Part shown: positions 1 to 50,211 of the stretch, piece by piece | How the letters are laid out: each line of letters starts with the position of its first letter | Numbering within the stretch: position 1 is the stretch's first letter | Assembly (NCBI GenBank): GCA_038087875.1 | Contig: CM075992.1 | Location: 2,048,001 to 2,108,000, forward strand | DNA length: 60,000 nucleotides | Direction: 5' to 3' | From: Malacoraja senta | Lineage: Eukaryota | Made by a program: the position numbers and the translations under genes | The notes under the pieces: generated by a model | The model's input: the letters and a program-made list of their open reading frames with translations, nothing else | Told to the model about the DNA's origin: nothing | Database searches by the model: none

Positions 1-1060
1 ATTGATGGGAGGTTGTTCCTCTCTCAGTTAATGGGGCTTTGCTTGTCAATCATCTCCAGCATCTCCTGGGTTTAGTTCCGTTTTGCAGCATCTGCAGTAC
101 TTTATTTTCCTATGGATATGCACAGACCCTGTTGCCCACAGTCTGTGCTGCTCTAGCTGTGGTTGGTTCCTCCTGCTGATGTTAAGACTGGGCTGCAGCG
201 TGTCGTGACGTTCTTTGGAGTAACTCAGCGGGTCAGGCAGCATCTCTGGAGAAAAAGAATGGGTGACGTTTCGTGTTGGTACCCTGCTTCATATTTTAAA
301 TGTCGCCCACCCATCACTTCTCTCCAGAGATGCTGCCTGTCCCGCTGAGTTACTCCAGCATTTACTTCAATTTAAACCATCACAACTAGAGGGCAGTCCT
401 GAACTACTATCTATCTCATTGGTGACCCTCGGACTGTCTATGCTCGGAATTTACTGGCTTTCCCTTGCACTAAATGTTATTCCCTGTATCATGTATCTGT
501 ACACCGTGGACGGCTCGATTGTAATCATGTATTGTCTTTCTGAAGAAGGGTTTCGGCCCGAAACGTTGCCTATTTCCTTCGCTCCATAGATGCTGCTGCA
601 CCCGCTGAGTTTCTCCAGCATTTTTGTGTACTTTGTGTTAAAGAAGGAACTGCAGATGCTGGAAAATCGAAGGTACCCAAAACTGCTGGAGAAACTCAGC
701 GGGTGCAGCAGCATCTATGGAGCGAAGGAAACAGGTAACGTTTCGGGCCGAAACCCTTTTGTGTACCTCGTCTTTCTGCTGACTGGTCAGCCCGCAACAA
801 AAGCTTTTCACTGTACCTCGGTACACGTGACAATAAAACTAAACTGAATTGAAGTTCGCTGCACATGGACTAGTAGCACAACAGAGGGGAAGAGCGAGAG
901 AACTGCTTCTCTCTTATGTGTGGGAAGGAACTGCAGATGCTGGTTTGCACCGAAGATAGAGACAAAATGCTGGAGTAACTCAGCGGGACAGGCAGCATCT
1001 CTGGGGTTTAAAAAAATCACTAGAGATGTTGCCTGTCCCGCTGAGTTACTCCAGCATTTA

Positions 1061-7600: not shown

Positions 7601-10600
7601 AAGCAAATGCTTTTGAACTAAAAGCAAATGCTTTGGGCTGCTGGAACTCTAAAGGAAACGCTGGAAATACATAATACAGTCTGAAGAAGGGTTTCGGCCC
7701 GAAACGTTGCCTATTTCCTTCGCTCCATAGATGCTGCTGCACCCGCTGAGTTTCTCCAGCATTTTTGTGTACGCTGGAAATACATAACATGTTTGGCGGC
7801 ATCTGTGGAGAGAGGGACTATCAACATTGTGAATGATCTTTCTCCAGCAGGGTGGATGTGGGTAGGATGGTTCCAAGTTAGCCAGTTCAGTTTATTGTCA
7901 CGTGTACCGAGGTACAGTGAAAAGCTTTTGTTGCGTGCTATCCAGTCAGCGGAAAGACAATGCATGGTTACATTCAAACCATTTATAGTGTATAGATACA
8001 TGATGAGTAACATTTAGTGCAAGGTAAAGCCAGCAAAGTCCCAACAAGGATAGGTTGAGCCCACTGTCTCTGCCACTTCCTTTCTTCTTCCCTCCCCCCC
8101 ACCCCCACATCAGTCTGAAGAAGCGTCTCGACCCGAAACTTCAACTATTCCTTTGCTCCATAGATGCTGCCTCACCCGCTGAGTTTCTCCAGCCGACCAC
8201 CGATCTACACTAACACTATCCTACACACACACTAGGGACAATTCTACCAAGCCAATTAGCCTACAAACCTGTAGGTATTTGGAGTTCAGGAGGAAACCGG
8301 AGATCCCGGAGAATAACCCGCGCAGGTCACGGGGAGAACGTACAAACTCCGTACAGACAGCACCCGTAGTCAGAATCGAACCCGGGTCCCTGGCGCTGTG
8401 AGGCAGCAACTCTACCGCTGCGCCACCGTGCCGCTGGTGGAGATGTTTCAAAGAAGGCCCGTCGGGTGCCCTTGAACCTTGATCCCAGCCCACCTGGTAA
8501 TGCCGTGCCACGACAGAGCTCAGAACAGAATCTGTCTGGGGAGTGTGGTGTCGGGTCATGCAAATAATGTGGTTTGCCCGCGAGGAAACTGCGTGTGAGT
8601 AGAGTGTCAGTGCTGGGGTTGTTGGCCAGGGACTGGCTGCTGACAATGCTCTGCTTAGCCTTGCAATTGTGGGAATGTCATTGGTGATATCTTGGCCGCA
8701 CCTTAACGATAGCTGTAGGTTATCCAAGTTCCAAAACATACTGAGCTTAAGGGGAGACTGCGAGCTTTGTACCAGCTGGTGGTCTTGATCTTAAAACAAT
8801 TTCCTCAGATGGCCCAAGGCTGTGCCACCACATTGAAGGCCTTGCTGAAGGTCATTGTCAATGTCCACCTTTGCTAAGAAGGTTGATTTGGATGATGAAA
8901 TCCAGACCCTTTGTCAGACACCACTGAGAAGGTTCCCCAGTTCTGGTGCTGGGTTAGAGTGTTGTAATTTGTGGGACTTGTTGCACTGAGTACTTTAGTT
9001 TAGTACTTTAGTGACACAGCACGGAAACAGGCCCTTCTGCCCACCAAGTCCACAACAACTAGCGATCACCCCGTACACTAGCAATATCCTACACACACTA
9101 GGGGCAATTTACAATTTTACAAAAGCCAATTAACCTACAAACCTGCACGTCTTTGGAGTGTGGCAGGAAACCACGGGGTCACGGGGAGAAAGTACAAACT
9201 CCGTACAGACAGCACCCGTAGTCAGGATCGAACCAGGGTCTCTGGCGCTGTGAGGCAGCAACTCTACCGCTGCGCCACTGGGTTGCCCACAGCGTTGCGT
9301 GTGTACGTTCTCGCGGTGACCTGCGTGGGTTTTCTCCGAGATCATCGGCTTCCTCCCACACTCCAAAGACGTACGGGTTTGTAGGTTAACTGGCTTGGTG
9401 TAAATGTAAATTGTCCCTAGTGTGTGTAGGGTGGTGTTCATCTGCGGGGATCGCTGGTCGGTGTGGACTCGGTGGGCCGAAGGGCTTGTTTCCGCGCTGT
9501 ATCTCTGAAATATACTAAGATAATGTCAACTCTTTCCCATTGTCTAGTGTACAGTATTTTGTAAGTTCATTCCTGAAGTGTCAGGGGTCATGGGGAGAAG
9601 ACAGGAAAATTGAGCCAAAATGGCCTCATTCTGCACCTATTACTTATGAAAAGCCATGTTCAAATTTTTCAACCAAGCCCTCTAGTCACAAACCTGCCAA
9701 CCAGTGGAAATGGCTCCTCCCCATCAACTACATCGATAACTATACATATCTAAAGGTTTTGATTCATTAACTGTAAATTCAAAAAAAAACATTCCGTGGT
9801 ATGTCTAATCTTTCCTCATAGTTCAGCTGTTGAAGCTGTACCATGCTTCGTCCAAGGCCAATATATTCTCCCCAAGGTATACTGGCCAGAACGGCTCAGC
9901 AAACACCAGATGTGGGCCAACAGACACTTCGTATTGCTGCAGCAGAACTTCCATGTCCTTGTGCTTCAGGGGAGAGGAGACGTTTGGATTCACTTTAGTT
10001 TATTGTCACGCGTTCCGAGGTTCCGTGAAAAGCTTTTGCTGAGACTGACCCCCTCCCCAATCTTAGCACATCCCCCAATCCTTTCCACTCTTCACTTTAA
10101 TTTCATGTTTCATGTATTTTGTGTTTTTATATAACCATATATAACCATATAACCATATAACCATAACAGCACGGAAACAGGCCATCTCGGCCATTCAAGT
10201 CCGTGCCGAACATTAAAAAAAAAAATTTTTTTAATTAAAAATAAATACTTCCCCCTGACAGATTATGACAGATCAATTTCCTTCCTGGGAGAAATAAAGT
10301 TCTATCGTATCGTATTGTAACCAGGCAGTGGAAAGACAATACATGATTATAATCGAGGTGCCCACGGTGTACAGATACAGGATCAAGGGAATAACTCGAA
10401 TAATGTTTAGTGCAAGATAAAGACCAGTAAAGTCTAATCAAAGACAGTCCATGGGGTCTCCAGTGAGGTAGATAGTAGTTCAGGACTGCTCTCTAGTTGT
10501 GGTGGGATGGTTCATGGAGCTTGTACCTCGGGGAGAGTCAAAACATCAAGGGAGGGGAAGGAAGAACAACATTTGAAAACCAATGCATTGACCATTTAAA

Positions 10601-11470
10601 ACTAACTCATGACCTAACAGCAAGGAGGAATTTCTTTAGCCAGAGGGTGGTGAATCAGTAGAATTCATTGCCACAGATTGCCAAAGGCTGGCAGTATCAT
10701 CAAGGACCCACACCATCCTGGCCACACACTCATCTCCCTGCTACCTTCAGGTAGAAGGTACAGGAGCCTGAAGACTGCAACGACCAGGTTCAGGAATAGC
10801 TACTTCCCCACAGCCATCAGGCTATTAAACTTGGCTCGGACATAACACTGAACATTAATAGCCCATTAACTGTTATTTGCACTTTATCAGTTTATTTATT
10901 CATGTGTGTATATATTTATAGAATGGTATATGGACACACTGATCTGTTTTGTAGTCAATGCCTACTATGTTCTGTTGTGCTGAAGCAAAGCAAGAATTTC
11001 ATTGTCCTATGACACATGACAATAAACTCACTTGAACTTGGGATGGCAGGGGGGGGGGGGCAAGTAATTGGGTATTTATAAAGCATTGGCTTGAGAGGTT
11101 GTTGATTGGTACAGGTGTCAGGGGTTACGGGGAGAAGGCAGGAGAATGGGGTTGAGGGAAAAAAAAGATCAGCCATGATCAAATGGTGGAGTAGAGTGGA
11201 TAATACTGTATCTTATGATCTTTAAGACTTTTGCCTTCCATCACAGTGAGGAGGTGCCTGGTAGACTCACTGTGGTGGATGTTAAATTTGTGTTCATTGT
11301 GTGTTTTGTTATTTTATTCTATGTTATGACTGTAAGGCACGAAATTTCGTTCAGACTGAAAGGTCAGAATGACAATAAAGGATACTTTGACTTTATGAAC
11401 TTTCCAAGTGCTCAGGCATTTGTCGGGAAGTCTGGGAGAATAACAGCCGTGTCCTCTCTTTATGTCACAG

Positions 11471-11647
11471 TTTTGATGTCGAGAATGGCCCGTCTCCAGC
11501 TCGGAGTCCGATGGACGCACAAGCGAGTCCAGGACTGGTCCTTCATCCCCAGAGCCAGCGCCGGGAGTCATTCCTCTATCGGTCGGACAGCGACTACGAC
11601 ACCTCGCCCAAAACAATGTCTCGAAATTCCTCCGTGAACAGTGATGT
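11471..11647 (+). CDS. PDE4A: PDE4A shared long-form exon, start of UCR1 with PKA site RRES
   Basis: cacag|T...GT|gtgagt, 177 nt, phase 2/2. Translates [67 protein letters not shown] and [11 protein letters not shown] match PDE4A better than 4B, 4C or 4D. Confidence 0.96.
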
Positions 11648-11681
11648 GTGAGTACAACTTCCCAACGTTACATTATTTACA

Positions 11682-11682
<1 letters not shown>

Positions 11683-11748
<66 letters not shown>

Positions 11749-11770
11749 TCTCTCTCTCTTTCACTGAGAT

Positions 11771-11860
<90 letters not shown>

Positions 11861-11886
11861 CATCTCTCTCTCTCTTTCACTGAGAT

Positions 11887-11934
<48 letters not shown>

Positions 11935-11989
11935 CTCTCTCCATCTCTCTCTCTCTTTCACTGAGATCCCCTTTCTCTCTCTCTCTCGA

Positions 11990-12040
<51 letters not shown>
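11683..12040. repeat. (CT)n microsatellite array with repeated TTTCACTGAGATCCCC spacers
   Basis: Directly visible; three higher-order units. Confidence 0.97.
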
Positions 12041-12044
<4 letters not shown>

Positions 12045-12939
12045 CCCTTGGCAGCTTTTCTTTCTCTCTCTCTGTCACCCCCTCTCTTTCTCTGTACATG
12101 AACTATAGAACAGTACAGCACAGGGACAGGCCCTTCAGCCCACAATGTCTGTGCCAAACTAATCTCATCAGCCTGCATATGATCCAAATCCCTCCATGCT
12201 CTGCATATCCATGCATCCATTCAAAAACCTCTTGAAATGCAGTCCCTTTAACCCCTCTCTTCAGGTTCTCACCCTCCCATCATCACTTCTCCCACTCCCT
12301 CTTTCTTCTCTTCACTCTTCACACTCCATCATCCCATCCCCCACATCCACTTTCCCGCTCTCTCTTCCACTCTCCCTCTCTCAACCTCTCCCTCGATCCC
12401 CTTTCGCCCTCTTTCTTGCCCTCGTGCTCTCTCTCCCAGATCTCTGCTCCACACCAAAAGCTCTCTGTAGCAAGTGCTTCCTGTCGAAACGTGCTTTATT
12501 TCTTACGAAACGAATGCGTTCCGGATCCTGGATATTGATATAAACCAGGAAATGTTGGAATCGCTCAAATGCGAATGACTGTCTGTGGAGAGACACTCAG
12601 AAGAAACATGTCATATGGTGATCCTTCATCAGATCATTGACCAGAAATATTCACTGTGTTTCCTTTTCCACAGATACTGCCTGACCCAGCTGATCTTTAT
12701 TTCCTGTCTTCCATTTTCAATCCCAACTTTTCCCAGATTTCTACAAAGTACTTCACAGATGCATTATCTGTTGCTTGCTTCTATCTATCTCTGTTCTGTC
12801 GATAGCATAGGATCATTAACTCACTCACTATCCCTTACTCATCTCTGCACAGCCTCTGTCATTAGATGTGTCAGAAGGGAGTTCTGGGTCTGTTACCGAC
12901 TTGTTGGTCCGTGTTGTCACCTCTGTTTGTTTCTTCCAG

Positions 12940-12976
12940 TCATACCGAGGACCTTATCGTCACACCTTTCGCTCAG
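12940..12976 (+). CDS. PDE4A: PDE4A 37-nt UCR1 exon
   Basis: ttccag|T CAT ACC GAG GAC CTT ATC GTC ACA CCT TTC GCT CAG|gtgagt = HTEDLIVTPFAQ, the canonical 37-nt PDE4 exon. Confidence 0.96.
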
Positions 12977-15662
12977 GTGAGTTGAATGTTCAACACCTTC
13001 TTCCAGTCTACCTTTTCCCTCATTCTCTCTCCCTCTGCAACGTTATCACAACCTCGATGGGAATCCCTTAGAAAATCCCACTCTGGAGTAGTTGTGGAAA
13101 CCAGATCCCAGATGGACACAAAACGCTGGAGTAACTTAGCGGGTCAGGCAGCATCTCTGGAGAAAAAGGAGAGGTATGATTGAATGGCAGAGTAGACTTG
13201 ATGGGCCGAATGGCCTAATTCTGCTCCTATCCCCTAGCTCACTTTCTCCCGACTTGTTTACAGAAGACTAGCGTTTCCTTCTGTCTTCCTGCAATTCTTG
13301 TGCTCGTGTTTTCTCTTTGTCCTTCTCGTGCCCTTACGTTTACTGGGCCTATTGATTTCTAGATAATTGTTATATTTTTAACCTAATATCAGCCTTGGTT
13401 TAGCATTTTATTTTAATCTTGGCTTCATTCATCCTTCAGACCGATCTAGCATTTGACTCCCCATCTTGATACCAAAAACAGCGCTCAACTTATCCTTCCA
13501 CGTCTAAACTCTCCCCTGTTCTCTCGCTTACACCTCGTTGTTCGAATTCTTCCCACCGAATGTATCACCTCACACTTTGTAAAACTTCACCAATCATTTG
13601 TCTACCTAAGATAGGCACAAATTGCTGGAGTAACTCAGCGGGCGACGTTTCAGTTCGAGCCCCTTCTTCAGACTGGAGAAGTAGTCTTTCCAGTTGAATC
13701 TGTCTACCCAGTTCTGCCTGTTTAGTTTAGATATACAGCACGGAAACAGGCCCTTCGGCCCACCGAGTCCGCGCCGACCAGCGATTAACACTACCATATA
13801 CACACTAGGGACAATTTTACATTTACACCAAGCCAATTAACCTACAAACCTGTACGTCTTTGGAGTGTGGGAGGAAACCGAAGGTCTCGGAGGAAACCCA
13901 CACATGTCACTGGGAGAAGGTACAAACTCCATATACAGCAAGCACCCGTAGTCAGGATGGAACCCGGGTCTCTGGCGCTATGAGGCAGCAACTCTACCGC
14001 TGCGCCACTGAGCCACCCTCACTATTTGTGATCGCCTCACTATTTGCACACTCGTGTTGCCTGCAGAGCGACAGTTACACACTCACCCCTGGGGAACACC
14101 CTGAGGATTTCCCCGACGTCCGAAAAAACAGCCGCCTGCTCTCAGCTTTCAGTAACGTAACCATCACACCACATCCACTCGAACCCCAGGGGCAGCAATT
14201 CAGTCAACGGGCCTGCGAGGTGGTACTTTCTCAAAGGGCTGCTGAAAGTCCCTAAAAGTTGAATGACTGGTATTTATTAACCCTTACTTTCCCAAGTGGC
14301 AATTAATTTAGTCTCAGAGTTATATTGGTCTTTCCTATTGCTGATAGGAAGCTGGCTAGCCTGCGGTTAATGGTTTAACCCTCTACACTAGCAACACAGA
14401 CGCACAGCTGGTAGAACAGCTGCCTCACAGCTCCAGTGACCTCTGGTCTGTTCTAGCCAATAGACAATAGGTGCAGGCCATTCGGCCCTTTGAGCTAGCA
14501 CCGCCATTCACTGTAATCATGGCTGACCATCCCCAATCCTGCCTTCCCCCATATCCCTTAACTCCGCTATCTTTAAGAGCTCTATCTAACTCTTTCTTCC
14601 GGTCTACTGTTCTATTTTTAACCCCCCTCACCTGTATCCACCTACCGCTTGCATGTTCTTGCTTCATCCCACTCCACCACTTTTTATTGACTAATCACCC
14701 TCAATCCAGATCTCAGTCCACCACAGGTCCAAAGACAACCCTGCGTATTCTTACAGTCCACGGTACTATATTTGAAGTCTCCTTAACTCACCTGTTGCCT
14801 CACCATTGGGAAATGTCCTGTTGTTAAAGCAAGATTGTTCCAAATGTAGAAACAAAACTGAAAATTGGATTACACAAAAAGGACACAAAGTCCTGGAGAA
14901 ACTCGGCGGGTGAGAGAGGCCAGCATCTATGAGCGAAGGGAATAGGTGACGGTTCGGGTCGAGACCCTTCTTCAGTGGATATTGTTAAGGCAGAGATAGA
15001 AAGATTCTTTAGTACGGGTGTCAGGGGTTATGGGGATAAGGCAGGAGGAATGGGTTAGGAGGGAGAGATAGATAAGCCATGATTGAATGGCAGAGTAGAC
15101 GTTAATGGGCCAAATGGCCTAATTCGACTCTTAATCCTTATGACCTTATGACAATAAACTAAACTGGAAACTGCCCTGTCTCCACCTCTTCCTTCCTTCC
15201 CGCCCTCACCACCCCCACATCAGTCTGAAGAAGGGTCTCGACCCGAACGTCACCTATTCCTTTGCTCCATAGATGCTGCCTCACCCGCTGAGTTTCTCCA
15301 GCAATTTGTCTACCTTCGATTTTTCCAGCATCTGCAGTTCTTCTTAACAAAGTGCTGGAGTAACTCGGTGGGTCAGGCAGCATCTCTGGAGAACGTGGCT
15401 GGGTGATGTTTTCAAGAGTCCCGATCTATCCATGTTGTCCAGTGATGGTGCCTGACCTGCTGAGTTACTCCAGCACTCTGTGTCCAGCATTGTTCTGATG
15501 TTGCGGCTGAGGTTCATTTAAGGAGAGTGCGGAGGGAGCTTTACTCAGCGTCCAGCTCCTGCTACCCGCGTGCTGCAAGTGGGACCATGAGTGGGGAATA
15601 TTGCGCGGCTGTGTGTTACGTGAGCCGTCTAGACCAGTGTTCACTGACGACTCTCTTCCCAG

Positions 15663-15732
15663 ATCCTAGCGAGTTTGCGCAGTGTGAGGAACAACTTCAC
15701 TGTCCTGGCCAACACACAGGGCCTCCAAACAA
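15663..15732 (+). CDS. PDE4A: PDE4A UCR1-end/LR1 exon (apparent 1-nt deletion at 15719-15721)
   Basis: cccag|ATC CTA GCG AGT TTG CGC AGT GTG AGG AAC AAC TTC... = ILASLRSVRNNFTVLANTQ; donor AA|gtgagt. The exon is 70 nt, but 71 nt are needed to keep the frame into exon 18802. Confidence 0.92.
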
Positions 15733-15811
15733 GTGAGTAGCCGCATCCGATGCACGCAGCCAGCTCGTGCTGTGGTCTGGACATTGTCCCACTCATAGAA
15801 CTCTGCATTAA

Positions 15812-15826
15812 CTGTGTGTGTGTGTC

Positions 15827-15864
<38 letters not shown>

Positions 15865-16635
15865 CTGTGTGTGTCTGTGTGTGTGTGGCTGTGTGTGTGT
15901 CTGTGAGTGTGTGTGGCTGTGTCTGTGTGTGTGTGTGTGTGTGTGCGTGTCTGTGTGTGTGTCTGTGTGAGTTTGGTGTGTGTGTGTGTCTGTGTGTGTG
16001 GCTGTGTGTGCGTGTGCTGTGTGTGTGTGGCTGTGTGTGTGTATGTGTGTGTCTGTGTGCGTGTTCTGTGTGTGTGTGTGTTTGTCTGTGTGTGTGTGTG
16101 TCTGTGTGTGCGTGTCTGTGTGTGTGGCTGTGTGTGTGTCTGTCTGTGTGTGTGTGTCTGTCTGTGTGTGTGTGTGTGTCTGTCTGTGTGTGTGTGTGTG
16201 TGTGTGTGGCTGTGTGTGTGTCTGTCTGTGTGTGTGTGTGTCTGTCTGTGTGTGTGTGTCTGTCTGTGTGTGTGTGTGTGTGTGTGTGTGGCTGTGTGTG
16301 TGTCTGTCTGTGTGTGTGTGTGTCTGTCTGTGTGTGTGTGTGTGTCTGTCTGTGTGTGTGTGTGTGTCTGTGTTTGCTCGTGTTGTGTGTGTGTGTCTGT
16401 GTGTGTGGTGTGTGTGTGTGTGTCTGTCTGTGTGTGTGTCTGTCTGTGTGTGTGTGTGTCTGTCTGTGTGTGTGTCTGTCTGTGTGTGTGTGTCTGTGTG
16501 TGTGTGTGTCTGTCTGTGTGTGTGTGTCTGTGTGTGTGTGTCTGTGCGTGTGTGTGTGTGTCTGTGTGTGTGTGTCTGTGTGTGTGCGTGTGTGTGCGTC
16601 TGTGCGTGTGCCTCCGTGTGCGTGTGTGTGTGTTT
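15812..16635. repeat. Compound (GT)n microsatellite
   Basis: About 820 bp of GT/GTCT/GGCT repeats. Confidence 0.97.
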
Positions 16636-16740
16636 ATGCATATGTCATTTATATATTGTGTAGAAACAAGGAACTGCAGATGCAGGTTACAAAAGAAGAC
16701 ACAAAGTGCAGGAATAACTGAAGAAGGGTCCCGAACCCAA

Positions 16741-17022
16741 ACGTCACCTATCCATGTTCTCCACAGATGCTGCCTGACCCGCTGAGTTACTCCATCACTC
16801 TGTGAAACGTCACCTATCCATGTTCTCCACAGATGCTGCCTGACCCGCTGAGTTACTCCAGCACTCTGTGAAACGTCACCTATCCATGTTCTCCACAGAT
16901 GCTGCCTGACCCGCTGAGTTACTCCAGCACTCTGTGAAACGTCACCTATCCATGTTCTCCACAGATGCTGCCTGACCTGCTGAGTTACTCCAGCACTCTG
17001 TGAGACGTCACCTATCCATGTT
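16741..17022. repeat. 66-bp tandem repeat derived from the Penelope terminus (about 4.3 copies)
   Basis: ACGTCACCTATCCATGTTCTCCACAGATGCTGCCTGACCCGCTGAGTTACTCCAGCACTCTGTGAA with units starting at 16741, 16807, 16873, 16939 and 17005. Confidence 0.93.
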
Positions 17023-18801
17023 CCGGCAGCATCTATGGGAGCGAAGGAAATAGGCAACGTTTCGGCCCGAAACCCTTCCGGGTTTCGGCCCGAAACTTTG
17101 CCTATTTCCTTCAGGGTTTCAGCCCGAAAGGTTGCCCATTCCTTCGCTCCACAGATGCTGCCTGACCCCTGAGTTACTCCAGCACTCTGTGTCTTCTATC
17201 TGACTAAGATTGCTTGTGTCTTAATTTGTATATACCTCTGTACATCTTGGTGTATATGCATGTGTATATTTTTACATTTATCTTTGTCTGTGTGTGTGTA
17301 TATGTCTGTGTGCGTGTTTGTATGAGTGTGTATATGTGTGTGTGTGGATGTATGTGAGTGTGTGTGTGTGTGTATATGTGTGTTGTCCGTGTGTGTTTGT
17401 GTATATGTGTTTGCACACTGGGGATATTGCATTCAGCAGACGTTGAAGTCTGGAGCAAGCTTTCCCCCGCTGTGTGTTCTGTGGGCAGTGCTGGCAGTGT
17501 AGGGTTTTGTCTCCAGAGGGCAGTAGAAGCCTGTTGTGGCAGTAGGTGCAGTGCCCCAGATCGGTGAGATGGGTGAGAGTGGAAGAGGAATCTCGGGCTG
17601 ATTTCATTGCAGTGTCCGAGAGCACTCACTGCTTGCAACTCCGACAATCACAAAGAATCCACTCGCAATAAAATAAACTCACCATCAAGCCAGGCAGTGG
17701 GATCACCACAGATTGTCTGAAGAAGGTTTTCGGCCCGAACGTTACCTATTTCCTTCGCTCCATAGATGCTGCTGCACCCCGCTGAGTTTCCTCCAGCATT
17801 TTTGTGTACCTATGATTTATTCTGGGCTTGTCCTGCTATCTATGTGTAGGAATGAACTGCAGATGCCGGTTTACACCAAAGATAGACACAGAATGCTGGA
17901 GTAACTCCGCAGGACAGGCAGCATCTCTGGGAGAGAAGGAATATAGGTTCGAGAGGCTGGTTCAGACTGAATGACTAGGGACACTCAGTCTGGATAGACT
18001 GGATAGACTCTGGCTTGTACTCGCTAGAATTTAGAAGATTGAGGGGGGATCTTATAGAAACGTACAAAATTCTTAAGGGGTTGGACAGGCTAGATGCAAG
18101 AAGATTGTTCCCGATGTTGGGGAAGTCCAGCACAAGGGGTTACAGTTTAAGGATAAGGGGGAAGTCTTTTAGGACCGAGATGAGAAAAAAAAATTCACAC
18201 AGAGAGTGGTGAATCTGTGGAATTCTCTGCCGCAGAGGCTATATTTAAGAGGGAGTTAGATGTGGCCCTTGTGGCTAAAGGGATCAGGGGGTATGGAGAG
18301 AAGGCAGGTACAGGATACTGAGTTGGATGATCAGCCATGATCATATTGAATGGCGGTGCTGGCTCGAAGGGCCAAATGGCCTCCTCCTGCACCTATTTTC
18401 TATGTTTCTATGTATGTTTCTATGGCAATTTTTACATTTACACCAAATCAATTAACCTACAAACCTGTACGCCTTTGGAGTGCGGGAGGAAACCGAAAAT
18501 CCAGGAGGAAAACCCCCGCAGGTCACGGGGAGAAGGTACAAACTCCGCACGGACAGCACCCGCAGTCAGGATCGAACCTGGGTCTATGGCGCTGTAAAGC
18601 AGCAACCTTAGCGCTGCGCCACCTTGTATCTTGCAGCGTGATACCTGCGTGCATTGTGTCGGTGTGCTGTGAGCTGTCGGTCTATACAACATAGCCTGTT
18701 TGCATCCTACCTGCGTGCACTGTGCCTGGTTGATGTTGCCACACGTGCCTGCATCCCGTGCCACCTGTGATACTCACCTGTTGTTCTCCTTTCCTTCACA
18801 G

Positions 18802-18845
18802 GAGGTCTCCCGTGACACCGCAGCCTGCACTCTGCACCCTGTCAG
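18802..18845 (+). CDS. PDE4A: PDE4A LR1 linker exon
   Basis: ttcacag|G AGG TCT CCC GTG ACA CCG CAG CCT GCA CTC TGC ACC CTG TCA G|gtaatg = (K)RSPVTPQPALCTLS(D), phase 2/1. Resembles human KRSPLGGPTPVCKATLSE. Confidence 0.88.
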
Positions 18846-19152
18846 GTAATGAGTCCCTTAGATAATGGCTCCTTCTACCTGCAGCGGCTGTTAACTCTGA
18901 CTGTCTGGTTTGGGGTCTTTGGAGCAGCGGGATGGAATAATAATCCTCCAAGATTCCGTGCTCCTCTAATTCCACGTTCACTCCCCCACCCCCCCCCACC
19001 CACCCCCCCCCCGATTTCAATCACTGCACACCCGCTCCACCTTGGATGGAGCTGTTCCCAGACCGTGCGGTGATGCATCCTGATAAAATGCTCTCCATGG
19101 CGCATCTGTAGAAGTTGGTGAGAGTTGTAGGGGACATGCCGAACTTCCTAAA

Positions 19153-19472
19153 AGCCCTGTCCCACGGTACGAGTTCATTCCAAGAGCTCTCCCTGATTCG
19201 AACTCGGGAGATTTACGGTAATGACCGCTCGTCGGTACTCGGGGCTCTCGTGGACATTTTTCAACGTGTTGAAAAAATCTTCGCGAGTCTTCCCGAGCTT
19301 ACCTGCCGTTAGCGAGTCTTCCCGAGTATCTTGCCGTTAGAGTTACGAGCCGCTAAGGGACGTCCCCGAGCTCCGACGTACCCGCTACGTTCATTCTCCG
19401 TGCTTACCACGAGTTTGATTTTTTTAAACTCGGGAGAGCTCTTGGAATGAACTCTCACCGTGGGACAGGGCT
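19153..19472. mobile_element. MITE with 41-bp TIRs (PIF/Harbinger-like)
   Basis: The left end AGCCCTGTCCCACGGTACGAGTTCATTCCAAGAGCTCTCCC matches the reverse complement of the right end with 2 mismatches. TAA/TTA-like flanks; inserted in a LINE remnant. Confidence 0.85.
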
Positions 19473-20300
19473 ATTAGCCTTCTAAGGAAGTAGAGACTTC
19501 TAAAGGCGCAAGGAGGTACCACACACAGAGGGCGAGACGGTGTGAGCAACAGGAGAACATGTGTTCAGAGGCATGTGTGGACAAGGACACAGGCTGGGCT
19601 CACATCCATTAGGATTAAAATACGGACCAAGTAACTTGTTTAAAACCCTTCCAGATCCTGAGGGGTCTTGACGAGGTGGATGAGCTCCTAAGTTATATAT
19701 TTATCTGAGTATTCAATGGTGTGGGTGTGTTAGTCAAAAGTCAAGTGTTTTATTTGTCATATGTCCCAGAATGGAACAATGACATTCTCACTTGCAGCAG
19801 CAAAACAGATATGTAAACATAGTACTCTGTCAAACCCGTAATAAACAACAAAATAAAATGCTCACCGTATATAAAAAATACAGACAAATAAATAGGCAAT
19901 AGTAGTGCAAAGTAAAAAAAATGTCCCCCAGTCTCTATAGTTCAGAGCCTCTTTGGAGGTTGTAGTGCTTCATAGCCTGGTGGTTGCAGGGAAGAAGCTG
20001 CTCCTGAACCTGGACGTTACAGTTTTCAGGCTCCTGTATCTTCTTCCCGATGGCAGGGGTGAAATGAGAGCGTGGCCAGGGTGGTGTGGGTCTCTGATGA
20101 TGGTGGTTGTATTTTAGAGGCAGCGCCTCTTGTAGATCGCTTCGATGGTGCGGGGTAACGCCTGTAAGGGGAGCTATGCTGGGGTTGGTGTGTGTGCGGG
20201 AGGGTCTGAGCGATGTGGGTTCGGAGCTGCATACCGCACCCTGGGTCTAGGGCCTGCCACAGCTCCTCTCAACCCATCTGCTGTGCATCCTTGCTTCCAG

Positions 20301-20413
20301 ATGAAACGTACCAGCAGCTGGCGAAGGAAACGCTGGAGGAGTTGGACTGGTGTCTGGACCAGCTGGAGACCATCCAGACATACCGATCGGTCAGCGAGAT
20401 GGCCACGAACAAG
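20301..20413 (+). CDS. PDE4A: PDE4A UCR2 N-terminal exon (113 nt)
   Basis: ttccag|AT GAA...AAC AAG|gttaga = [38 protein letters not shown], the canonical 113-nt PDE4 exon. Confidence 0.97.
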
Positions 20414-24286: not shown

Positions 24287-24705
24287 TGGCGATCGCTTCG
24301 CCCAACACCTCCGCTCGGTTCGCACTAACCAACCCGATCTCCCGGTGGCCTCAGCACTTCAACTCCCCCTCCCGTTCCCAATCCGACCTTTCTGTCCAGG
24401 GCCTCCTCCATGGCCAGAGTGAGGACCACCGTAAATTGGAGGAGCAGCACCTCATATTTCGCTTGGGCAGTTTACACCCCAGCGGTATGAACATTGACTT
24501 CTCTAATTTCAGGTAGTCCCTGCTTTCTCCTCCCCTTCTCAGCTCTCCCTCAGCCCACTGGCTCCACCTCTTCCTTTCTTCTTCCCCCCCCACCCCCCCA
24601 CCCTCACATCAGTTTGAAGAAGGGTCTCGACCCGAAACGTCACCTATTTCCTTCGCTCCATAGATGCTGCCTCACCCGCTGAGTTCCTCCAGCATTTCTG
24701 TCTAC
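24287..24705 (+). mobile_element. Penelope-like element 3' fragment
   Basis: GDRFAQHLRSVR...QHFNSPS...KLEEQHLIFRLGSLHPSGMNIDFSNF plus the same terminal repeat. Similar copies at 29360-29590 (-), 37315-37900 (+) and 43175-43690/45178-45350 (+). Confidence 0.85.
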
Positions 24706-25399
24706 CTCAGGTGCTGATTCGCTGTGGCCCCATACAATTGAACCAAAATGTTCATAAATTCATGAGTGATAGAAGCAGAATGCGGCCATTCGGCCCATCA
24801 AGTCTACTCCGCCATTCAATCATGGCTGATCCATCTCTCCCTCCTAACCCCATTCTCCCGCCTTCTCCCCATAACCCCTGACACCCGTACTAATCAAGAA
24901 TCTATCTATCTCTGCATTAAATATATCCACTGGCTTGGCCTCCACAGCCGTCTGTGGCAATGAATTCCACAGATTCACCACCCTCTGACTAAAGAAATTC
25001 CTCCTCATCTCCTTCCTGAAGGAACGTCCTTTAATTCTGAGGCTGTGACCTCTGGTCCTAGACTCTCCCACCAGTGGAAACATCCTCTCCACATCCACTC
25101 TATCCAAGCCTTTCACTATTTGGTATGTTTCAACGAGGTTCGCCCTCATATTCCTACAGTGCTGCCTTCTGGCTGGGCAACATTTCCTCAGGGTACCTTG
25201 TGTACCTTCGATTTTCCAGCATCTGCAGTTCCTTCGTTAACATTTCCTCAGCACAGGTAGACACAAAATGCTGGAGAAACTCAGCGGGCGAGGCAGCATT
25301 TATGGAGAGAAGGAATTGGCGACGTTTCGGCCTCAGTGCAGCCCCTTTGCCAGCTCAGTGGCTTCTGTGATACCATCCTGCTGCCTCTCCAATCGAGGA

Positions 25400-26767: not shown

Positions 26768-29700
26768 GTAGGACCATGGTTATTCTGACACAGCTACGGT
26801 TATACGGCTTCAACCAGCGTCGCCAGTTCACTTCCTGCGCACCATGGTTATCCGGTTCCCCTCGGACTTCCACTCACCAGTGGCCCACTCCCCGGGTCTC
26901 CGGTTATAACCTGCCTCCCTCCCCCTTCCCCTTCCCATTGCCCCCACCCCACCATTGCCAACCCGCCCTCCACTCTACCCTCCATCACATGCTTCTGTTC
27001 TTGATTCACTCTTGCCAACGGTTTGTGATCACGTTTGCATTATGTGGGGCAGGTGAGGTGCCGAGGGAAAGCAGATCCCTCTCCTATTCTCAGTTTCTTA
27101 CCCGGGGGGCCACAGTCTTAGAGTAAAGGGGAGGTCATTTAAGACTGAGGTGAGAAAAAAACTTTTCCACCCAGAGAGTTGTGAATTTGTGGAATTCCCA
27201 GCCACAGAGGGCAGTGGAGGCCAAGTCACTGGATGGATTTAAGAGAGAGTTAGATAGAGCTCTCGGGGCTAGTGGAGTCAAGGGATATGGGGAGAAGGCA
27301 GGCACGGGTTATTGATAGGGGTCGATCAGCCATGATCACAATGAATGGCGGTGCTGGCTCGAAGGGCCGAATGGCCTCCTCCTGCACCTATTTTCTATGT
27401 TTCTATGTTAAAGCCATCAGGGAAGGGCAGTGGTGGAGGCCAACACACAGACGGTGGCAACTGGAAGGGAAATATTGGCCTACTGGAGTTACTCCCAGCT
27501 ACTCCCACTCCCTGCCCGATGCCAGCCTCGCTGGTGACCAATGAGACCGGCAGCCCATCCGGTGACAGCCCCTGTCAACCGGTGACCATTGGGTAAAAGC
27601 ACTGTTCCTGCAGAGAAGACAGACACAAAATGCTGGAGTAACTCAGCGGGACAGGCAGCATCTCTGGAGAGAAGGAATGGGTGACGTTTCAGGTCGAGAC
27701 CCACACTCAGACCAGGCCCATTCCTTCTCTCCAGAGGTGCTGCCTGTCCCGCTGAGTTGCTCCAGCATTTAGTGTCTGTCTCTGGGGTAAACCAGCATCT
27801 GCAGTTCCTTCCTACACATGTTGACCCAGCGACACGGCTCCATCCAATTAGCCAAACCCCGGGCAGTGTCCACCATGGAAACAGTCCTCTGCAGCCATCT
27901 CTTGAAGGGCACAGTTTGGATGCCAGTTCTTTATGGGCAATGTGGATGGGTATTGCTGAAGGACTGTGGTGCCCCCATGGTACACTAGCCAGCAACACTC
28001 ATGACTACTGTGGTAAGTTCATAAATGATAGGAGCAGAATTAGGCCATTCGGCCCATCAAGTCTACTCCGCCATTCAATCATGGCTGATCTATCTTTCCC
28101 TCCTAACCCCATTCCCCTGCCTTCTCCCCAATAACCCCTGACACCCGTACTAATCAAAAATCTATCTACTCTGCCTTAAAAATAACCATGGACTTGGCCC
28201 TCCACAGCCTTCTGTGGTGACTGGAGAAAAGGGGGTTGGGGCAAAGAGATTTACTAATCTATATTGAAAGCCTGCAAGTAGGTGATGTTTACAATGTCAG
28301 GGGTGGTGGTTGAAACAGACATGCCATGGGTGAAGGGTCTGAAGAAGGGTCCTGACCCAAAACATTCCATATTCTTCTTCTCAAGAGATGCTCCCTGACC
28401 CGTCGAGTTACTCCAGCACTTTGTGTCTATATTCGGTGTAAGAAGGAACTGCAGATGCTGGTAAAATCAAAGGTAGACACAAAATGCTGGAGAAACTCAG
28501 CGGGTGAGGCAGCATCTCTCTGGAGAAAGGAATGGGCGACGTTTCGGGTCGAGACCCTTCTTCAGACTGATGTCAGGGGAGGGGGCAGTTCACCAGACTG
28601 ATTCCTGGGATGTCAGGACTTTCATATGAAGAAAGACTGGATAGACTCGGCTTGTACTCGCTAGAATTTAGGAGATTGAGAGGGGATCTTATAGAAACGT
28701 ACAAATATTCTTTTTTTTTTTTTTTTTATTTTTTTTTTTAAACTTTAAGAAAGAAAAAGAAAGAAGTAAGAAAAGTGAAGAAAGTGCGCAAAGGTTGTGA
28801 AGTGCCAAAAGAGTGTTGGGAAAAGAAAGCCCCTTAGAAAAGAGGTTAAGAGAAGGAAGTAAAGTTAGAAAATAGACCCTAGAAAAAAAAGAGAAAGAAA
28901 GAAGGAACAATCGCTCTATTATGACTCTTATACCATACTTCATAGAGAAGGAACTACCAACCAAGTCTATTTTTATTTTACCTCCCATTACCAGGAAACG
29001 TACAAAATTCTTATGGGGTTGGACAGGCTAGATGCAGGAAGATTGTTCCCGATGTTGGGGAAGTCCAGGACAAGGGGTCACAGCTTAAGGATAAGGGGGA
29101 AATCCTTTAAGACCGAGATGAGGAAAAACTTTTTCACACAGAGAGTGGTGAATCTCTGGAACTCTCTGCCACAGAGGGTAGTTGAGGCCAGTTCATTGGC
29201 TATATTTAAGAGGGAGTTAGATGTGGCCCTTGTGGCTAAAGGGATCAGGGGGTATGGAGAGAAGGCAGGTACAGGATGATCAGCCATGATCATATTGAAG
29301 GCGGTGCAGGCTCGAAGGGCCGAATGGCCTACTCCTGCACCTATTTTCTATGTATCTATGTAAAGATAGGTGGGAACAGTAAGATTAGTGGGAGAACTGG
29401 AAGGGGGGAGGGGACGGAGAGAGAAAGCCAGGGCTATCTGAAGTTAGAGAAGTCAATGTTCATACCGCTGGGGTGTAAACTACCCAAGGGAAATATGAGG
29501 TGCTGTTCCTCCAATTTATGATCAGCAAGGTCAGGTTGGGATTGGGAGGGGGAGTTGAAGTGCTGGGCCACCGGGAGATCAGCTAGGTTAAGATAAGAGA
29601 GAACTGCAGATGCTGCTTGACACCGACTATAGACACACCTACACACTCTCAGTCAACCTACTTTATCCCCACAACCCTATAGATTTTTCTGTTTCAAGTA

Positions 29701-31317
29701 TTTTTTTCCCAATTTCCTTTCACTAACCCATTAAGTCCGCTCTCAGACAGCACACCCAGATTACAATCACAGCACAACAAGATTCTCCTAATCACCCTGC
29801 CAAATCCTCCCTCAGCAGCCTGCTCACCCTCCTGTCAATGTGAGCCGTTCCTCTCTGTCCATTCAATCCAAGATAGATGAGGTCGGCACGGGTGGTGCAG
29901 CGGTAGAGTTGCTGCCTTGCAGCACCAGACACCCGGGTTCGATCCTGACTATGGGCGCTGTCTGTACGGAGTTTGCACCTTCTCCCTGTGACCTTGAATG
30001 GGGTTTCTCCCAGATCTCCGGTTTCCTCCCACACTCCAAAGACGTACAGGGTTGTAGGTTAATCGTGTAGGCAGGAACTGCAGATGCTGGTTTAAGTTGG
30101 CGCGGGCTTGGTGGGCCGAAGGCTCCGTTTCCACGTTGTACCTCCAAACTAAACTAAGCTAAGCGTTGTACTGGTCTGTCAGATCAGTCTGAAGAAGGGT
30201 TTCGGCCCGAAACGTTGCCTATTTCCTTCGCTCCATAGATGCTGCTGCACCCGCTGAGTTTCTCCAGCACTTTTGTCTACCTTTGTAACTGGGATCAGGA
30301 AGGGCAGAGTTGAGAGCCTGGCAATGGGAGCAGGTCACACAGACCTGTATCATACAATCCATCGCACAGCCCTGTTGCTAGTTCCAGAACACATTTAGTA
30401 TATTAAACCACTGTTGACCATTGTTGGTCAAAGCTTGGTCACAGTCACAGCTGTGACAGGTTGCACTGCATCTTATAGTCTACCTTCCTTCACAAATCCT
30501 CATGGGACATGCGGTCATCTCAATGTTCTGTTCACACCCATTGTAGTAAACACTGCCCAGTCCATCACCGGCTCTGACCTCCCTTCCATCGAGGGGATCT
30601 ACCACAGTCGCTGCCTCAAAAAGGCTGGCAGTATCATCAAGGACCCACACCATCCTGGCCACACACTCATCTCCCTACTACCTTCAGGTAGAAGGTACAG
30701 GAGCCTGAAGACTGCAACGACCAGGTTCAGGAATAGCTACTTCCCCACAGCCATCAGGCTATTAAACCTGGCTCGGACATAACACTGAACTTTATTAGCC
30801 AATACTGTTATTTGCACTTTATCAGTATATTGACCATTGTGTATATATTTATAGAATGCCTTGTAGTAAATGCCTACTATGTTCTGTTGTGCTGAAGCAA
30901 AGCAAGAATTTCATTGTCCTACCAGGGACACATGACAATAAACTCACTTGACTTGACTTGACTTGACTTGTACATGTATATAGCCATTACCTAGAATTCC
31001 AGGTGACCCATCAGGTGAAATAAACACAGTCTAATCCAGACCATGCTTGTAGAATCCAGCCTTGCCTGAACAAGCCCAAACTAACATAGAGCAGCCCACC
31101 CAGCCCGGTCTAGTCCGATCTAACGCACTCATCATTGTCCAAATCAAACAAGACAACTTACCCCAGTAGGTGGGAAGGAACTGCAGATATTGGTTTCTAC
31201 CGAAGATAGACACAAATAGTAATTCAGCGGGACAGGCAGCAGCATCTCTGGAGGGAAGTGATAGGTGACCTTTCGGGTCGAGACCTTTCTTCAGACCGTG
31301 ACCCTTCTTCAGACTTA

Positions 31318-31897: not shown

Positions 31898-33000
31898 TTA
31901 GCCCAGGTGCTGGAGTAACTCAACAAGTTCCTTCCTGCGCTGTATAACTGGCCTGTTACGCTGCTGCAAATCTGAATTTCATTGTTCTGTTGTCGGAACA
32001 ACATGTGTAAACAGTGTAAGGAACAAACAATGTGCAGGAAGGAACTGCAGATGTTGGTTTAAATCGAAGATAGACACAAAGTGCTGGAGTAACTCAGCGG
32101 GTCAGGCAGCATCTCTGGAGAGAAGGAATGGGTGACGTTTCGGGTTGAGACTGAAGAAGGGTCTCGACCGGAAACGTCACCCGTTCCTTCGCTCCAGAGA
32201 TGCTGCCTGACCCGCTGAGTTACTCCAGCATTTTGTGTCTACCTAAGGAACAAACAACTTCCCAAACCACCTCCCCAGGTGCCGTCTCTCTCTGTGGCCC
32301 CCATATATCCCTCCTCTTCCACTCAATCCCCATTGCCTGCCTCCCAGCCCCTCGTGTCACAGAGGTCGCACAGATCCCCACAGAGAGGGCAGCAGAAGAA
32401 AGTAATTGTGAACAGCGCGGTCCACTGGAGATGGCGTCCATGAGTACCACCCCCCCCCCCCCCAAACAAGGTAGCACTCCCTCAATCTTGCCCCTCCATC
32501 TGAAGAAGGATCCCGACCTGAAACATCAATGCAGAGATAGATAGATTCTTGATTAGTACGTGTATCGGGGGCTATGGGGAGAAGGCAGGAGAATGGGGTT
32601 AGGATGGAGAGATTGATCAGCCATGATTGAATGGGGGAGTTGACTTGATGGGCCGAATGCCTAATTCTGCCCCTATCACTTATGACCTTATTCTCCAGAG
32701 AAGCTGCCTGACCCACTGAGTTACTCCAGCGTGTGAGCTGCTGACACACATGTGTTGGTGTGGGAATGGCCCGCCCTGCTCAGGAGGACTAGCACCATGT
32801 TACATGTCCATGCACCGTCTTGCAATCACTGCCAGTCTGACTCAGCCGGCATCTGACCCCGACGCACTTGTTGCTTTGATCCCCAGGTCACGTCATCCTT
32901 TCAATGGCTGCATCTTAGCTTTAACCTTCAATCCATGTGAAGGTTTAAAAAAAAAAAATGCAAATAAATCTTCCAGAAAAACCCCCCTTCGGAAAATCAT

Positions 33001-33200
33001 NNNNNNNNNNNNNNNNNNNNNNNNNNNNNNNNNNNNNNNNNNNNNNNNNNNNNNNNNNNNNNNNNNNNNNNNNNNNNNNNNNNNNNNNNNNNNNNNNNNN
33101 NNNNNNNNNNNNNNNNNNNNNNNNNNNNNNNNNNNNNNNNNNNNNNNNNNNNNNNNNNNNNNNNNNNNNNNNNNNNNNNNNNNNNNNNNNNNNNNNNNNN
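33001..33200. other. Assembly gap (200 N)
   Basis: Run of exactly 200 N, typical of a fixed-size scaffolding join. Confidence 0.99.
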
Positions 33201-36868: not shown

Positions 36869-38496
36869 CCAAAACTGGAAATAAAAAAAGAATGAGAAAG
36901 TTGTGAAAAGAGATATGGGGAGAAAGTTCACACTAGATTAGTCAGTGCAAGTATTTTACTGAGATTAGTTCAAATGGGAATGATATAACAAATTTGAGTT
37001 TACAACGTGTGATTGCAGATATATGAATCAAGTTAAGGACTTCAACACACATAGCCACAGCAACAGTTTGAACAGGGGTGGGACCAGGCATTTAATATTG
37101 CTGGGTGATGAATGGTAATAAAATATATATCATAATACTGGCGAGGGAATGACGCTGAGGCTCAACGATAGTCTTCCTTTAGACACTCTCTTCATAAACT
37201 CTAGAGCATTATGTTCATTTCAAGAGGGATGTGTGAGGCTAGTGGACACAGAGAGAGCCTAGCCTTGATCTTTCATAGGCCAAATTTAGGCATCAAACAG
37301 CCGGACTTTCATATCGGCAAGACCAAGAGCTGGCTCGGCGATCATTTGGCTGAACATCCCGCTCAGTCCGCCTAAACCTACATGATCTCCCGGTTGTTAA
37401 CACTTTAACTCCCCCTCCCATTCCCAATCTGACCTGGGCCTCCTCCATTATCAGAGTGAGGCCCAGCGTAAATTGGAGGAACAGCACCTCATATTTCGCT
37501 TGGGCAGCTTACACCCCAGCGGTATGAATTTAGATTTCTCTAACTTCAAGTAATCCCTTGATTTCCCTCTCTCTCCATCCTTCCCCCATCCTTGTTCTCT
37601 GACTAGTTTTACTGCCCTCCTAATTCAATTTTACATTGCATGCCTCGTGGTCCCCTTCCCCATAGCTAACAATGATCTATTCTACATTTCCCTTGAACTT
37701 CGTCCCCTTTGATCTCTTGTTTTCACACCTCACCCTTTTATATCTCTATGTCTCCCTTTCCTCCGACTCTCAATCTGAAGGAGGGTCTCGACCCGAAACG
37801 TCACCCATTCCTTCTCTCCGGAGATGCTGCCTGTCGCGCTGTTACTCCAGCATTTTGTGTCTACCTTGGGTTTAAACCAGCATCTGCAGTTCCTTCCCAC
37901 ACACTATCACTTGCCAGGATTTGTCCCGCTACCACTCCTTTTCTAGCTTTCTCATTGCCTGACTAAAGAAGGGTCCCAACCCGAAAAGCTGCCTGTCCAT
38001 TCTCTCCACAGATGCTGCCTGACCCACTGAGTTACTCCAGCAGTTTGCCTTTTGTCTCATGCCTGCTGCTCTACTGAAGAAGAAGGTCCAATGTTTTAAT
38101 ACAGCTCAACACTCTCCATGTCCTTGATATCGTTAATATTGAAAAATCCAACAATTTCTCTCTCGAAAAAAACTCGTCAGCTGTCACTTGTTATTCTAAT
38201 TACCCACTCCTATCTATTTCAAAGTCTCGTTTTACTAACATCTCATTTTCTTTCCATTCCCATTTTCTGTTCCTTTTGACAACGTCACATTTCCTTTGAT
38301 ACATTACCCTTCAACTTTTCATTTCCTGTTGGTTTTTTGTATTCAATGAGCCCTATATTTAACGATGCATTAAAAATTAAATGCATTGAACATTAAACGT
38401 TTAGTTTCCCAGTGTCCTCGAGGCAATTCATGTCTTGTACTGCATGATTGAATTTGTTTGAATTTAAGATCATAGTTTCAGATTGAACTAAATCAC

Positions 38497-46822: not shown

Positions 46823-46997
46823 ATGCAGAAACTCTGGTTCACCCTGGCTGTCTGGCTGCTCACCCCCGGGTCCCAGCTGGAAGCGGAAGCTCGGAATCCG
46901 AGTCTCGGTGTCAAACTCTGTGGGAGAGAGTTTATTCGTGCTGTCATCTTTACCTGTGGAGGCTCCAGGTGGAAGCGGACTGAGATAAACCTGCCAG
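46823..46997 (+). CDS. RLN3: Relaxin-3 preproprotein exon 1 (signal peptide + B chain)
   Basis: MQKLWFTLAVWLLTPGSQLEAEA-RNPSLGVKLCGREFIRAVIFTCGGSRW-KR-TEINLP, then G|gtacga (phase 1). The B chain LCGREFIRAVIFTCGGSRW is diagnostic of RLN3 and carries the RxxxRxxI motif. Confidence 0.97.
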
Positions 46998-49827: not shown

Positions 49828-50211
49828 CAAAGATCCTTTAGCGAGCAAGATAGTCCACTCGACGAAAAAGACGTAGTACGGTCATGGGCAGATTCATGGG
49901 TCATTTTCGGCCCCATTTCCGTAACCGGCTTCCGTCTCCGCACCAAAGATCCCATAGGATACTAGTGCGGAGACGGAAGCCGGTTACGGAAACATCCTCG
50001 TAAAAATAAAAGTTCTTTGGTAAAAAATCTTCTCCTCATTTTCAGAATTTCAATTTATTAACACAAACTGTTCCCCCGCAACGTTGATTACACTGCGGGT
50101 CGGGTCAGGTCCGGTTACGGAAATGGATGAAAAAAAGGCCCACGTTCTGTTCCGTTGCGTACTACACGTCAGCCCATTGCATTTAGCAGGAGTGGTCTAT
50201 CTTGCTCTTTG
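49828..50211. mobile_element. Non-autonomous DNA transposon with 8-bp TSD in the RLN3 intron (hAT or P superfamily)
   Basis: GTCTGAAG duplicated at 49820-49827 and 50212-50219. Termini CAAAGA...TCTTTG, subterminal IR GAGCAAGATAG(T/A)CCACTC, and an internal 28-bp inverted repeat. Confidence 0.82.

Follow-up and report, generated by a model that had tools for sequence, protein, structure and literature searches.

A 60-kb stretch of the Malacoraja senta genome, analysed over its whole length and called the window below, carries in copy after copy a short sequence with the letter order of a hammerhead ribozyme. The question it raises is what this motif belongs to, and whether its copies can act on the transcripts that contain them. 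We consider it highly probable that the motif is a minimal type I hammerhead heading the 3' pseudo-LTR of a Penelope-like element (PLE), and that the window copies are 5'-truncated insertions, likely inert; the directly observed parts of this account are the core, stem II, the palindromic stem III, the position after a GIY-YIG frame, the inverted pairs and the optional tail.

Occurrence, anatomy and identity of the motif

Scanning the 60-kb window with the core pattern CTGANGA-N-GGG-loop-CCCGAAAC gave eight exact matches, compared with none in 100 dinucleotide shuffles. The sites proposed in the initial annotation at 540, 1474, 7681, 30189 and 50522 (forward strand) and at 42904–42931 (reverse strand) were all found, as were the degenerate copies at 8115, 15225, 24614 and 37775, whereas the one placed at 3228 in fact starts at 3229. 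Fuzzy matching to two subfamily references returned 26 and 33 sites in the window, so that the earlier figure of about 25 repeats is a slight undercount. A profile search with the whole repeat recovered 74 fragments that together make up 7,130 nt (11.9%) of the window, a density here of one per roughly 0.8 kb, whereas 5 block shuffles gave none; this is in line with the very high copy number proposed. The ribozyme is spanned in 32 of these 74 fragments. Core, palindrome and stem II survive together in 9 of the 32, namely 540, 1474, 7681, 30189, 32151 and 50522 on the forward strand and 28565, 39784 and 42931 on the reverse strand; with the exact matches, they bear out the type I order CUGANGA ... 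GAAA ... UH. No Rfam hammerhead family reached its gathering score anywhere in the window. Contigs with pieces of the repeat stretch numbered 85,744 of 27.2 million, 66,228 of 17.4 million and 5,752 of 1.27 million in three public runs, tallies that show high abundance, a different quantity from copy number.

Read 5' to 3', the element is composed of the end of the GIY-YIG frame, its stop, a linker, TCAGT, the core CUGAAGA with an extra A, and stem II, followed by GAAA, CG and UH; the first 3' end comes about 65 nt further on, and a tail of some 35 nt beyond it is optional. At 1474 this order is seen in its native position on the forward strand: the 5'-truncated 3' end of a PLE open reading frame with a GIY-YIG fragment (1045–1356, stop at 1354–1356) leads into a pyrimidine-rich linker (1357–1473), whose terminal TCAGT resembles an initiator and a 3' splice acceptor in letters only, then an intact core (1474–1501; CUGAAGA-A, UUCG loop, GAAA, ACGU, U as H17) and the remaining pseudo-LTR up to the first 3' end (1502–1567). 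Cleavage is predicted between 1501 and 1502, with a stem I of 2 bp and a stem II of 4 bp.

Pairing was assessed in a 13-row alignment of 11 author-chosen copies from the 32 spanning ones together with two outside loci, L005 and L007. An unpaired A lies between A9 and position 10.1, and the pair 10.1–11.1 is G-C in 12 of the 13 rows. Stem II consists of 4 bp closed by a tetraloop, not of 3 bp with a 6-nt loop as originally drawn; it is retained in both subfamilies, as had been claimed, with 98% of cells paired over the 13 sequences and mostly one-sided changes, and the subfamilies differ in its fourth pair, U-A versus U-G. Stem I has at most 2 bp (U-A or U-G, then G-C), its third pair missing in 9 of 13 rows, which agrees with the very weak stem of about 2 bp described earlier, and stem III is indeed cut down to the palindrome ACGU, the majority state in all four subfamily groups. 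Both subfamily changes in the stems (U-A to U-G) preserve pairing. In this alignment, where two-sided stem changes come mostly from L005 and L007, 0 to 3 of 500 shuffles score as high as the observed structure, which also exceeds every slid control.

The coding ends upstream of 1474, 24614 and 37775 had been assigned to a GIY-YIG domain, and a Pfam match for the 1045–1353 frame together with tblastn confirms the assignment. That frame matches PF01541 at 24 bits against a cut-off of 22.6; its closest relative, at 86%, comes from Leucoraja erinacea (little skate) and the next ones from sharks and rays, which points to a skate or a near relative as the probable host. The other two instances, both on the forward strand, are a GIY-YIG end with linker and a subfamily B core carrying C3U (24287–24707), and a GIY-YIG end with a longer linker, a core carrying A9G and a tail (37307–37903); between stop and core the linker is pyrimidine-rich, about 100–225 nt long and different among subfamilies. 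Reverse transcriptase (RT) lies upstream of the endonuclease in the relatives, and it is only there, e.g. in P0003 and P0004, that RT and GIY-YIG occur in one open reading frame; endonuclease ends and decayed RT pieces (43082–43689) lie apart within the window, which contains no full-length element and no tandem context to read. A CX2-5CxxC linker, described as a mark of Neptune and also of Nematis PLEs, joins RT and endonuclease in 114 of 123 relatives, and the window copies begin downstream of it. With three copies after GIY-YIG ends and the published consensus matched, the proposal of a minimal type I hammerhead in Penelope termini stands. Elsewhere, decayed PLE RT pieces come after a pseudo-LTR that lies on their own strand (42946–43689), with a further RT-linker piece at 45141–45368, and two long open LINE-type reverse-transcriptase frames of 477 and 670 aa (43768–45201 and 56661–58673, reverse strand) suggest young non-LTR insertions. 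The predicted Stegostoma protein P0004 extends into the pseudo-LTR (residues 505–522), its final residues being compatible, at the protein level, with the same core and a U at variable position 7. A putative N-terminus encoded in the tail had no match among the PLE proteins compared.

Outside the window, a pattern scan of genome contigs gave three matches (L005, L006 and L007) and one of viral contigs gave none, while a metagenome scan with an endonuclease alignment yielded 4 loci from 116 candidates, none with the descriptor. Because these three loci were picked by the core pattern, their core identity holds by construction, and independent evidence comes only from stem I, the fourth stem II pair and the PLE context. 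L007, a metagenome-bin contig, encodes a PLE at 45–48% amino-acid identity (E 4e-76) and, about 90 nt past the PLE stop, shows the same core, whose stem I, of 4 bp, is a different one; in L005 stem I is 5 bp long, and three protein queries gave no PLE match there. Both are contigs of a bacterial genome bin with animal-type PLE hammerheads, L007 including a PLE RT-endonuclease frame, and probably represent host DNA in that bin. The third match, L006 1501–1528 from a Treponema bin, has a hammerhead core with a 4-bp stem II and a 1-bp stem I and was left out of the alignment.

The consensus of Cervera and De la Pena 2014 (PMC4209133) comprises CUGANGAH, an extra base before G10.1, a G10.1–C11.1 pair and a palindrome at 15.2/16.2, so two features recorded in the initial annotation, the palindromic stem III and an additional base following A9, belong to a type already described in 2014. 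The present motif has CUGANGA-H with the extra base, G10.1–C11.1 and the palindromic 15.2/16.2 in common with those metazoan hammerheads, as well as the absence of loop III, a U-rich 5' flank, a position after the open reading frame and an occurrence mostly as dispersed copies, single or on opposite strands (PMC4209133). Its stem I (2 bp) and stem II (4 bp) lie at the short end of the range: helix I spans 2–5 bp in published PLE hammerheads, and the published alignment includes cases with a 2-bp helix I and a 3-bp helix II. Fish and frog genomes hold thousands of dispersed copies, for which that report describes no monomer cleavage and low dimer cleavage, and the PLE hammerheads of D. virilis, Culex and Oikopleura have a 2-bp stem I, an extended D. 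virilis motif being weakly cleaved (PMC4209133). Cartilaginous fish do not appear in Table S1 or Fig. S3 of that report, and no report of PLE hammerheads from skates or sharks turned up in our literature search; Lunse et al. 2017 may list cartilaginous-fish cases.

Insertion pattern and the RNA that is inserted

The repeat unit is 95–130 nt long and has the ribozyme core at its head. The optional tail is present in 20 of 60 copies reaching far enough, and there are 14 back-to-back inverted pairs, with the tail on exactly one side in 8 and on both sides in none; 5' truncation, an inverted 5' copy and an optional 30–40-nt tail constitute the published insertion pattern of PLEs. One such pair, tailed at one end, occupies 32031–32255 with an intact forward core at 32151 devoid of stem I, and another (42801–43041) joins the intact, tailed reverse core at 42904–42931 to a forward core carrying G12A. 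An intact subfamily B core with tail lies at 28435–28571 (reverse strand), an intact subfamily A core at 30189–30216 (forward strand), and the subfamily A core at 540–567 (C3 to H17, forward strand) has a stem I of 1 bp because the copy is 5'-truncated at the core; near it, a subfamily A copy in antisense orientation (635–761) carries the optional tail, about 35 nt, and is devoid of the CUGA box. Direct repeats of 16 and 11 nt adjoin 2 of 21 solo copies, respectively an intact one on the forward strand (7681–7772), where the repeat is likely a target-site duplication, and one on the reverse strand with an intact subfamily A core and 22 nt of linker (39691–39806). Seven further pairs are face to face, joined at their 3' ends (539–761, 1468–1643, 7676–7817, 15219–15411, 16936–17078, 17714–17967 and 28335–28571), and may be insertions into earlier copies.

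Where the copies begin is informative about the inserted RNA. Among 69 fragments with E < 1e-4, 26 start at −6 to +3 relative to C3, 14 at +4 to +13, 9 at +14 to +23, 3 at +24 to +33 and 9 beyond, and 8 were scored as linker-bearing, a scoring in which 37960 was probably miscalled as having the linker and 28565 as having none. Only 1 of the 69 starts within 2 nt of the cut site (+28). Given that the 5' edge of the ribozyme accounts for 26 starts, the inserted RNA was likely uncleaved, and the copies likely derive from RNA that still held the whole ribozyme.

A similar boundary appears in the sequencing runs: loose ends at 1469–1473 are among the best supported in all four runs, a step to which linkers of other subfamilies contribute, and they have no common upstream sequence (upstream agreement 0.32–0.44). 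For a possible spliced upstream exon joined at CAG|T, no common upstream sequence was found among window copies or among RNA loose ends, in reads dominated by dispersed copies. The initiator consensus is YYANWYY, which TCAGTCT fits, so the copies may be run-off cDNAs from initiation near the mRNA 5' end. According to this tentative reading, which we regard as possible though less than even, reverse transcription from two tail sites runs to the nearby 5' end of an uncleaved PLE mRNA, that end being placed about 3 nt before CUGA at the initiator-like TCAGTCT, and produces the mini-copies. If true, the many thousands of copies in the genome would map the RNA start of the element and would be in vivo evidence that transposing RNA carries its hammerhead uncut. 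Template switches by microhomology at GTCT could also contribute to the 5'-edge starts.

The Drosophila virilis Penelope element provides a second resemblance. Its intron is reported at 416–491 and C3 at 496, and the CAG upstream of the present core looks like this acceptor, 5 nt before C3; the D. virilis AG is an intron acceptor, whereas the AG here is known as a resemblance of sequence alone. The two hammerheads have in common a 2-bp helix I and an AG just upstream of the core, and differ in that, in the D. virilis form, helix III contains a 2-nt palindromic insertion and helix II is 6 bp long.

In an anole PLE, Frangieh et al. 2024 (PMC11167929) found that the tail is bounded by two internal start sites of reverse transcription, that cutting by the ribozyme requires the protein, that insertion mainly uses uncut RNA and that no RNA-seq ends fall at the cut site. 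The skate element is like this Anolis Poseidon PLE, PAc, in its two 3' ends separated by an optional 30–40-nt tail, in the absence of RNA-seq ends at the cut site and in the likely uncleaved state of the inserted RNA; it differs in that PAc belongs to the Penelope/Poseidon clade and has the start of its open reading frame inside the ribozyme, whereas the relatives found here have the Neptune-type CX2-5CxxC linker (PMC11167929). By analogy, the ribozyme of an active element would cut only as a dimer through its ACGU palindromes or together with the protein of the element, and reverse transcription would begin at two internal sites and generate two 3' ends. Its template would be uncleaved RNA, so that the copies would keep the cut site intact.

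Tandem units of 34 and 66 nt also occur in the window. None of the tandems (1639–1745, 16739–17023 and 17074–17145) has a CUGA box, and a retrozyme array with a complete hammerhead in each unit was rejected as a candidate. The identical 34-nt unit, running from stem II to CCTTC, is found at 1639–1745 and 17074–17145, at inverted junctions in both cases, the first within an inverted pair at 1567–1799; together with a 1514-to-1482 joint common in public contigs, it is a recurrent template jump.

Folding, conservation and copies in host genes

The initial annotation considered activity uncertain, and the folding predictions agree: at 37°C, 8 of the 9 intact copies have a predicted share of hammerhead-like fold no higher than 0.0015, the core purines being predicted to pair instead with downstream pyrimidines of the CCUUC type. 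Because folding programs ignore tertiary and dimer contacts and score L005 low too (0.009; L007 in long context, 3e-5), this result is suggestive only. The prediction is that nearly every copy in the window is inactive.

In polyA RNA of a relative, another species, 9,079 of 7,335,232 reads matched the repeat stretch. They cross the cut site without a dip in depth (2,484 and 2,355 reads on the two strands in the 1490–1507 bin), and no pile-up of read ends was called there, fragmented RNA-seq being a weak test of cleavage. The even coverage of both strands fits read-through of dispersed copies. Over the endonuclease part (1040–1400) the reads are strand-biased by about 2.3 to 1, and over the pseudo-LTR they are even.

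Conservation was compared by counting varying columns among the four subfamily groups, a rough sorting. The core varies in 1 of 11 columns and the downstream part in 16 of 60 (p = 0.20); with the palindrome and three stem II pairs included, 1 of 19 columns varies against the same 16 of 60 (p = 0.04). A per-copy test gave 15/320 against 116/1371 (p = 0.02) but, being biased by ascertainment, is given no weight. On the column counts, excess conservation of the core appears weakly supported; its complete lack, named in the initial annotation as an argument against a ribozyme, is not what the counts give. As the excess is weak, even the source element may carry no more than a vestige of the ribozyme.

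Sense copies had also been placed in introns of two host genes. Five PDE4A exons (UCR1/UCR2 part) lie at 11469–20413 on the forward strand, and sense copies spanning the ribozyme are present between them at 15225, 16718 and 17717, all with broken cores; none of the 9 intact copies lies inside a confirmed PDE4A intron. Copies 540, 1474 and 7681 may be inside a long upstream PDE4A intron. The first exon and the catalytic exons of PDE4A are absent from the window: the gene ends after the UCR2 exon with no catalytic exon in the 26 kb before RLN3, which include a 200-N gap at 33001–33200, and the catalytic exons are likely missing through a gap or mis-join in the assembly and not through truncation of the gene.

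RLN3, its identity confirmed through both chains, extends over 46823–50961 on the forward strand (coding exon 1 to 46997, exon 2 from 50687), and its intron, 46998–50686, holds four antisense and two sense copies. The sense copy reported about 160 nt before exon 2 is there: it begins at 50522, 165 nt upstream, and the acceptor AG ends at 50686. This intact copy (50518–50610) is joined to an older one, and the junction by chance yields a 4-bp Watson-Crick stem I. It has a hammerhead-shaped minimum-energy fold with a predicted share of 0.63 and 0.14 in short contexts; in the 49040–50687 context its stem probabilities fall to 0.0. A near-perfect complement, the antisense subfamily A copy at 49049–49158, forms a duplex of −169.8 kcal/mol with it and, being transcribed earlier in the same intron, is predicted to sequester the 50522 ribozyme. 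The older sense copy at 50214–50241 retains its core letters with AUGU as stem III, a 3-bp stem I and a weakened stem II, and its stem probabilities are 0.0 in both contexts. Since a random flank yields 4 paired bases 1.5% of the time (0.35% for Watson-Crick pairs), one 4-bp stem I among about 26 junctions is unremarkable. With no intact copy in confirmed PDE4A introns and the RLN3 copy predicted to pair with its antisense neighbor, a role for the intronic sense copies, as suggested earlier, is not upheld, and an effect on PDE4A or RLN3 is unlikely.

Alternative readings and significance

The initial annotation suggested that the genome may hold a non-autonomous Penelope family. Taken further, the short copies would form a separate family, SINE- or retrozyme-like, with its own transcript from the 5' edge of the ribozyme and with borrowed PLE protein. 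The 26 of 69 copies starting at −6 to +3, the loose ends clustered at 1469–1473 in four of four runs, the defined 3' ends and the two direct repeats would all suit such a family, and PLE-derived non-LTR retrozymes with a type I hammerhead, including one chondrichthyan case, have been described as originating from PLE pseudo-LTRs (bioRxiv 10.64898/2026.07.22.740005). Those retrozymes, however, are tandem arrays with a complete hammerhead per unit, which the window does not contain, its 34-nt and 66-nt tandems having no CUGA box; moreover, the subfamily letters are identical in short and long copies, and the low upstream agreement of the loose ends leaves no unique head sequence. An origin as 5'-truncated ends of the autonomous element accounts for the copies just as well, and we consider a separate family improbable. 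Chance resemblance to a hammerhead in an unrelated repeat is hardly credible: it would accord with the silence of Rfam, and the copy number is no independent support for a ribozyme since all copies descend from few sources, but all consensus features occur in the expected place after the PLE endonuclease stop, and the published consensus and the distant PLE of L007, with the same core in the same place and different paired stems, already contradict it.

The remaining two alternatives concern function. A vestige throughout the lineage, in which the 2-bp stem I is non-catalytic and the sequence is kept as a promoter, protein-binding or splice site, is doubtful but deserves weight, as the third position of stem I is unpaired in 9 of 13 rows compared with 4–5 bp in L007 and L005, the competing pairing with CCUUC-type sequence dominates, and PLE clades devoid of hammerheads are reported to proliferate well. 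Against it stand the 2-bp stems of D. virilis, Culex and Oikopleura, with weak cleavage of the extended D. virilis motif, the low variation (1 of 19 columns, compared with 16 of 60 downstream) when the core is counted together with palindrome and three stem II pairs, and the subfamily changes that keep pairing; this reading and the origin from a PLE pseudo-LTR can hold together. Self-cleavage of the RLN3-intron copy 50522, alone or with the copy at 50214 that lies 308 nt upstream, with consequences for RLN3 pre-mRNA, is very unlikely. Its 4-bp stem I and short-context fold, and the intact core letters of 50214, whose AUGU could pair with ACGU, speak for it; yet the antisense copy lies 1.4 kb upstream, the long-context stem probabilities vanish for both copies, the stem I length is within what about 26 random junctions provide, and a monomeric stem III is absent.

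On the preferred account of a PLE hammerhead in 5'-truncated insertions, dispersed copies would enter host transcripts in both orientations and are predicted to stay unfolded. Because the repeat occurs in both orientations and makes up about 12% of the window, it is predicted to give rise to much intronic double-stranded RNA. As PLE hammerheads are a known class, the case adds a host lineage and no mechanism. An abundant family with sharp ends nevertheless offers a way to count, genome-wide, where inserted copies start, which bears on the role of the PLE hammerhead: starts at the 5' edge of the ribozyme rather than at the cut site would be in vivo evidence against cleaved RNA as the transposition template.
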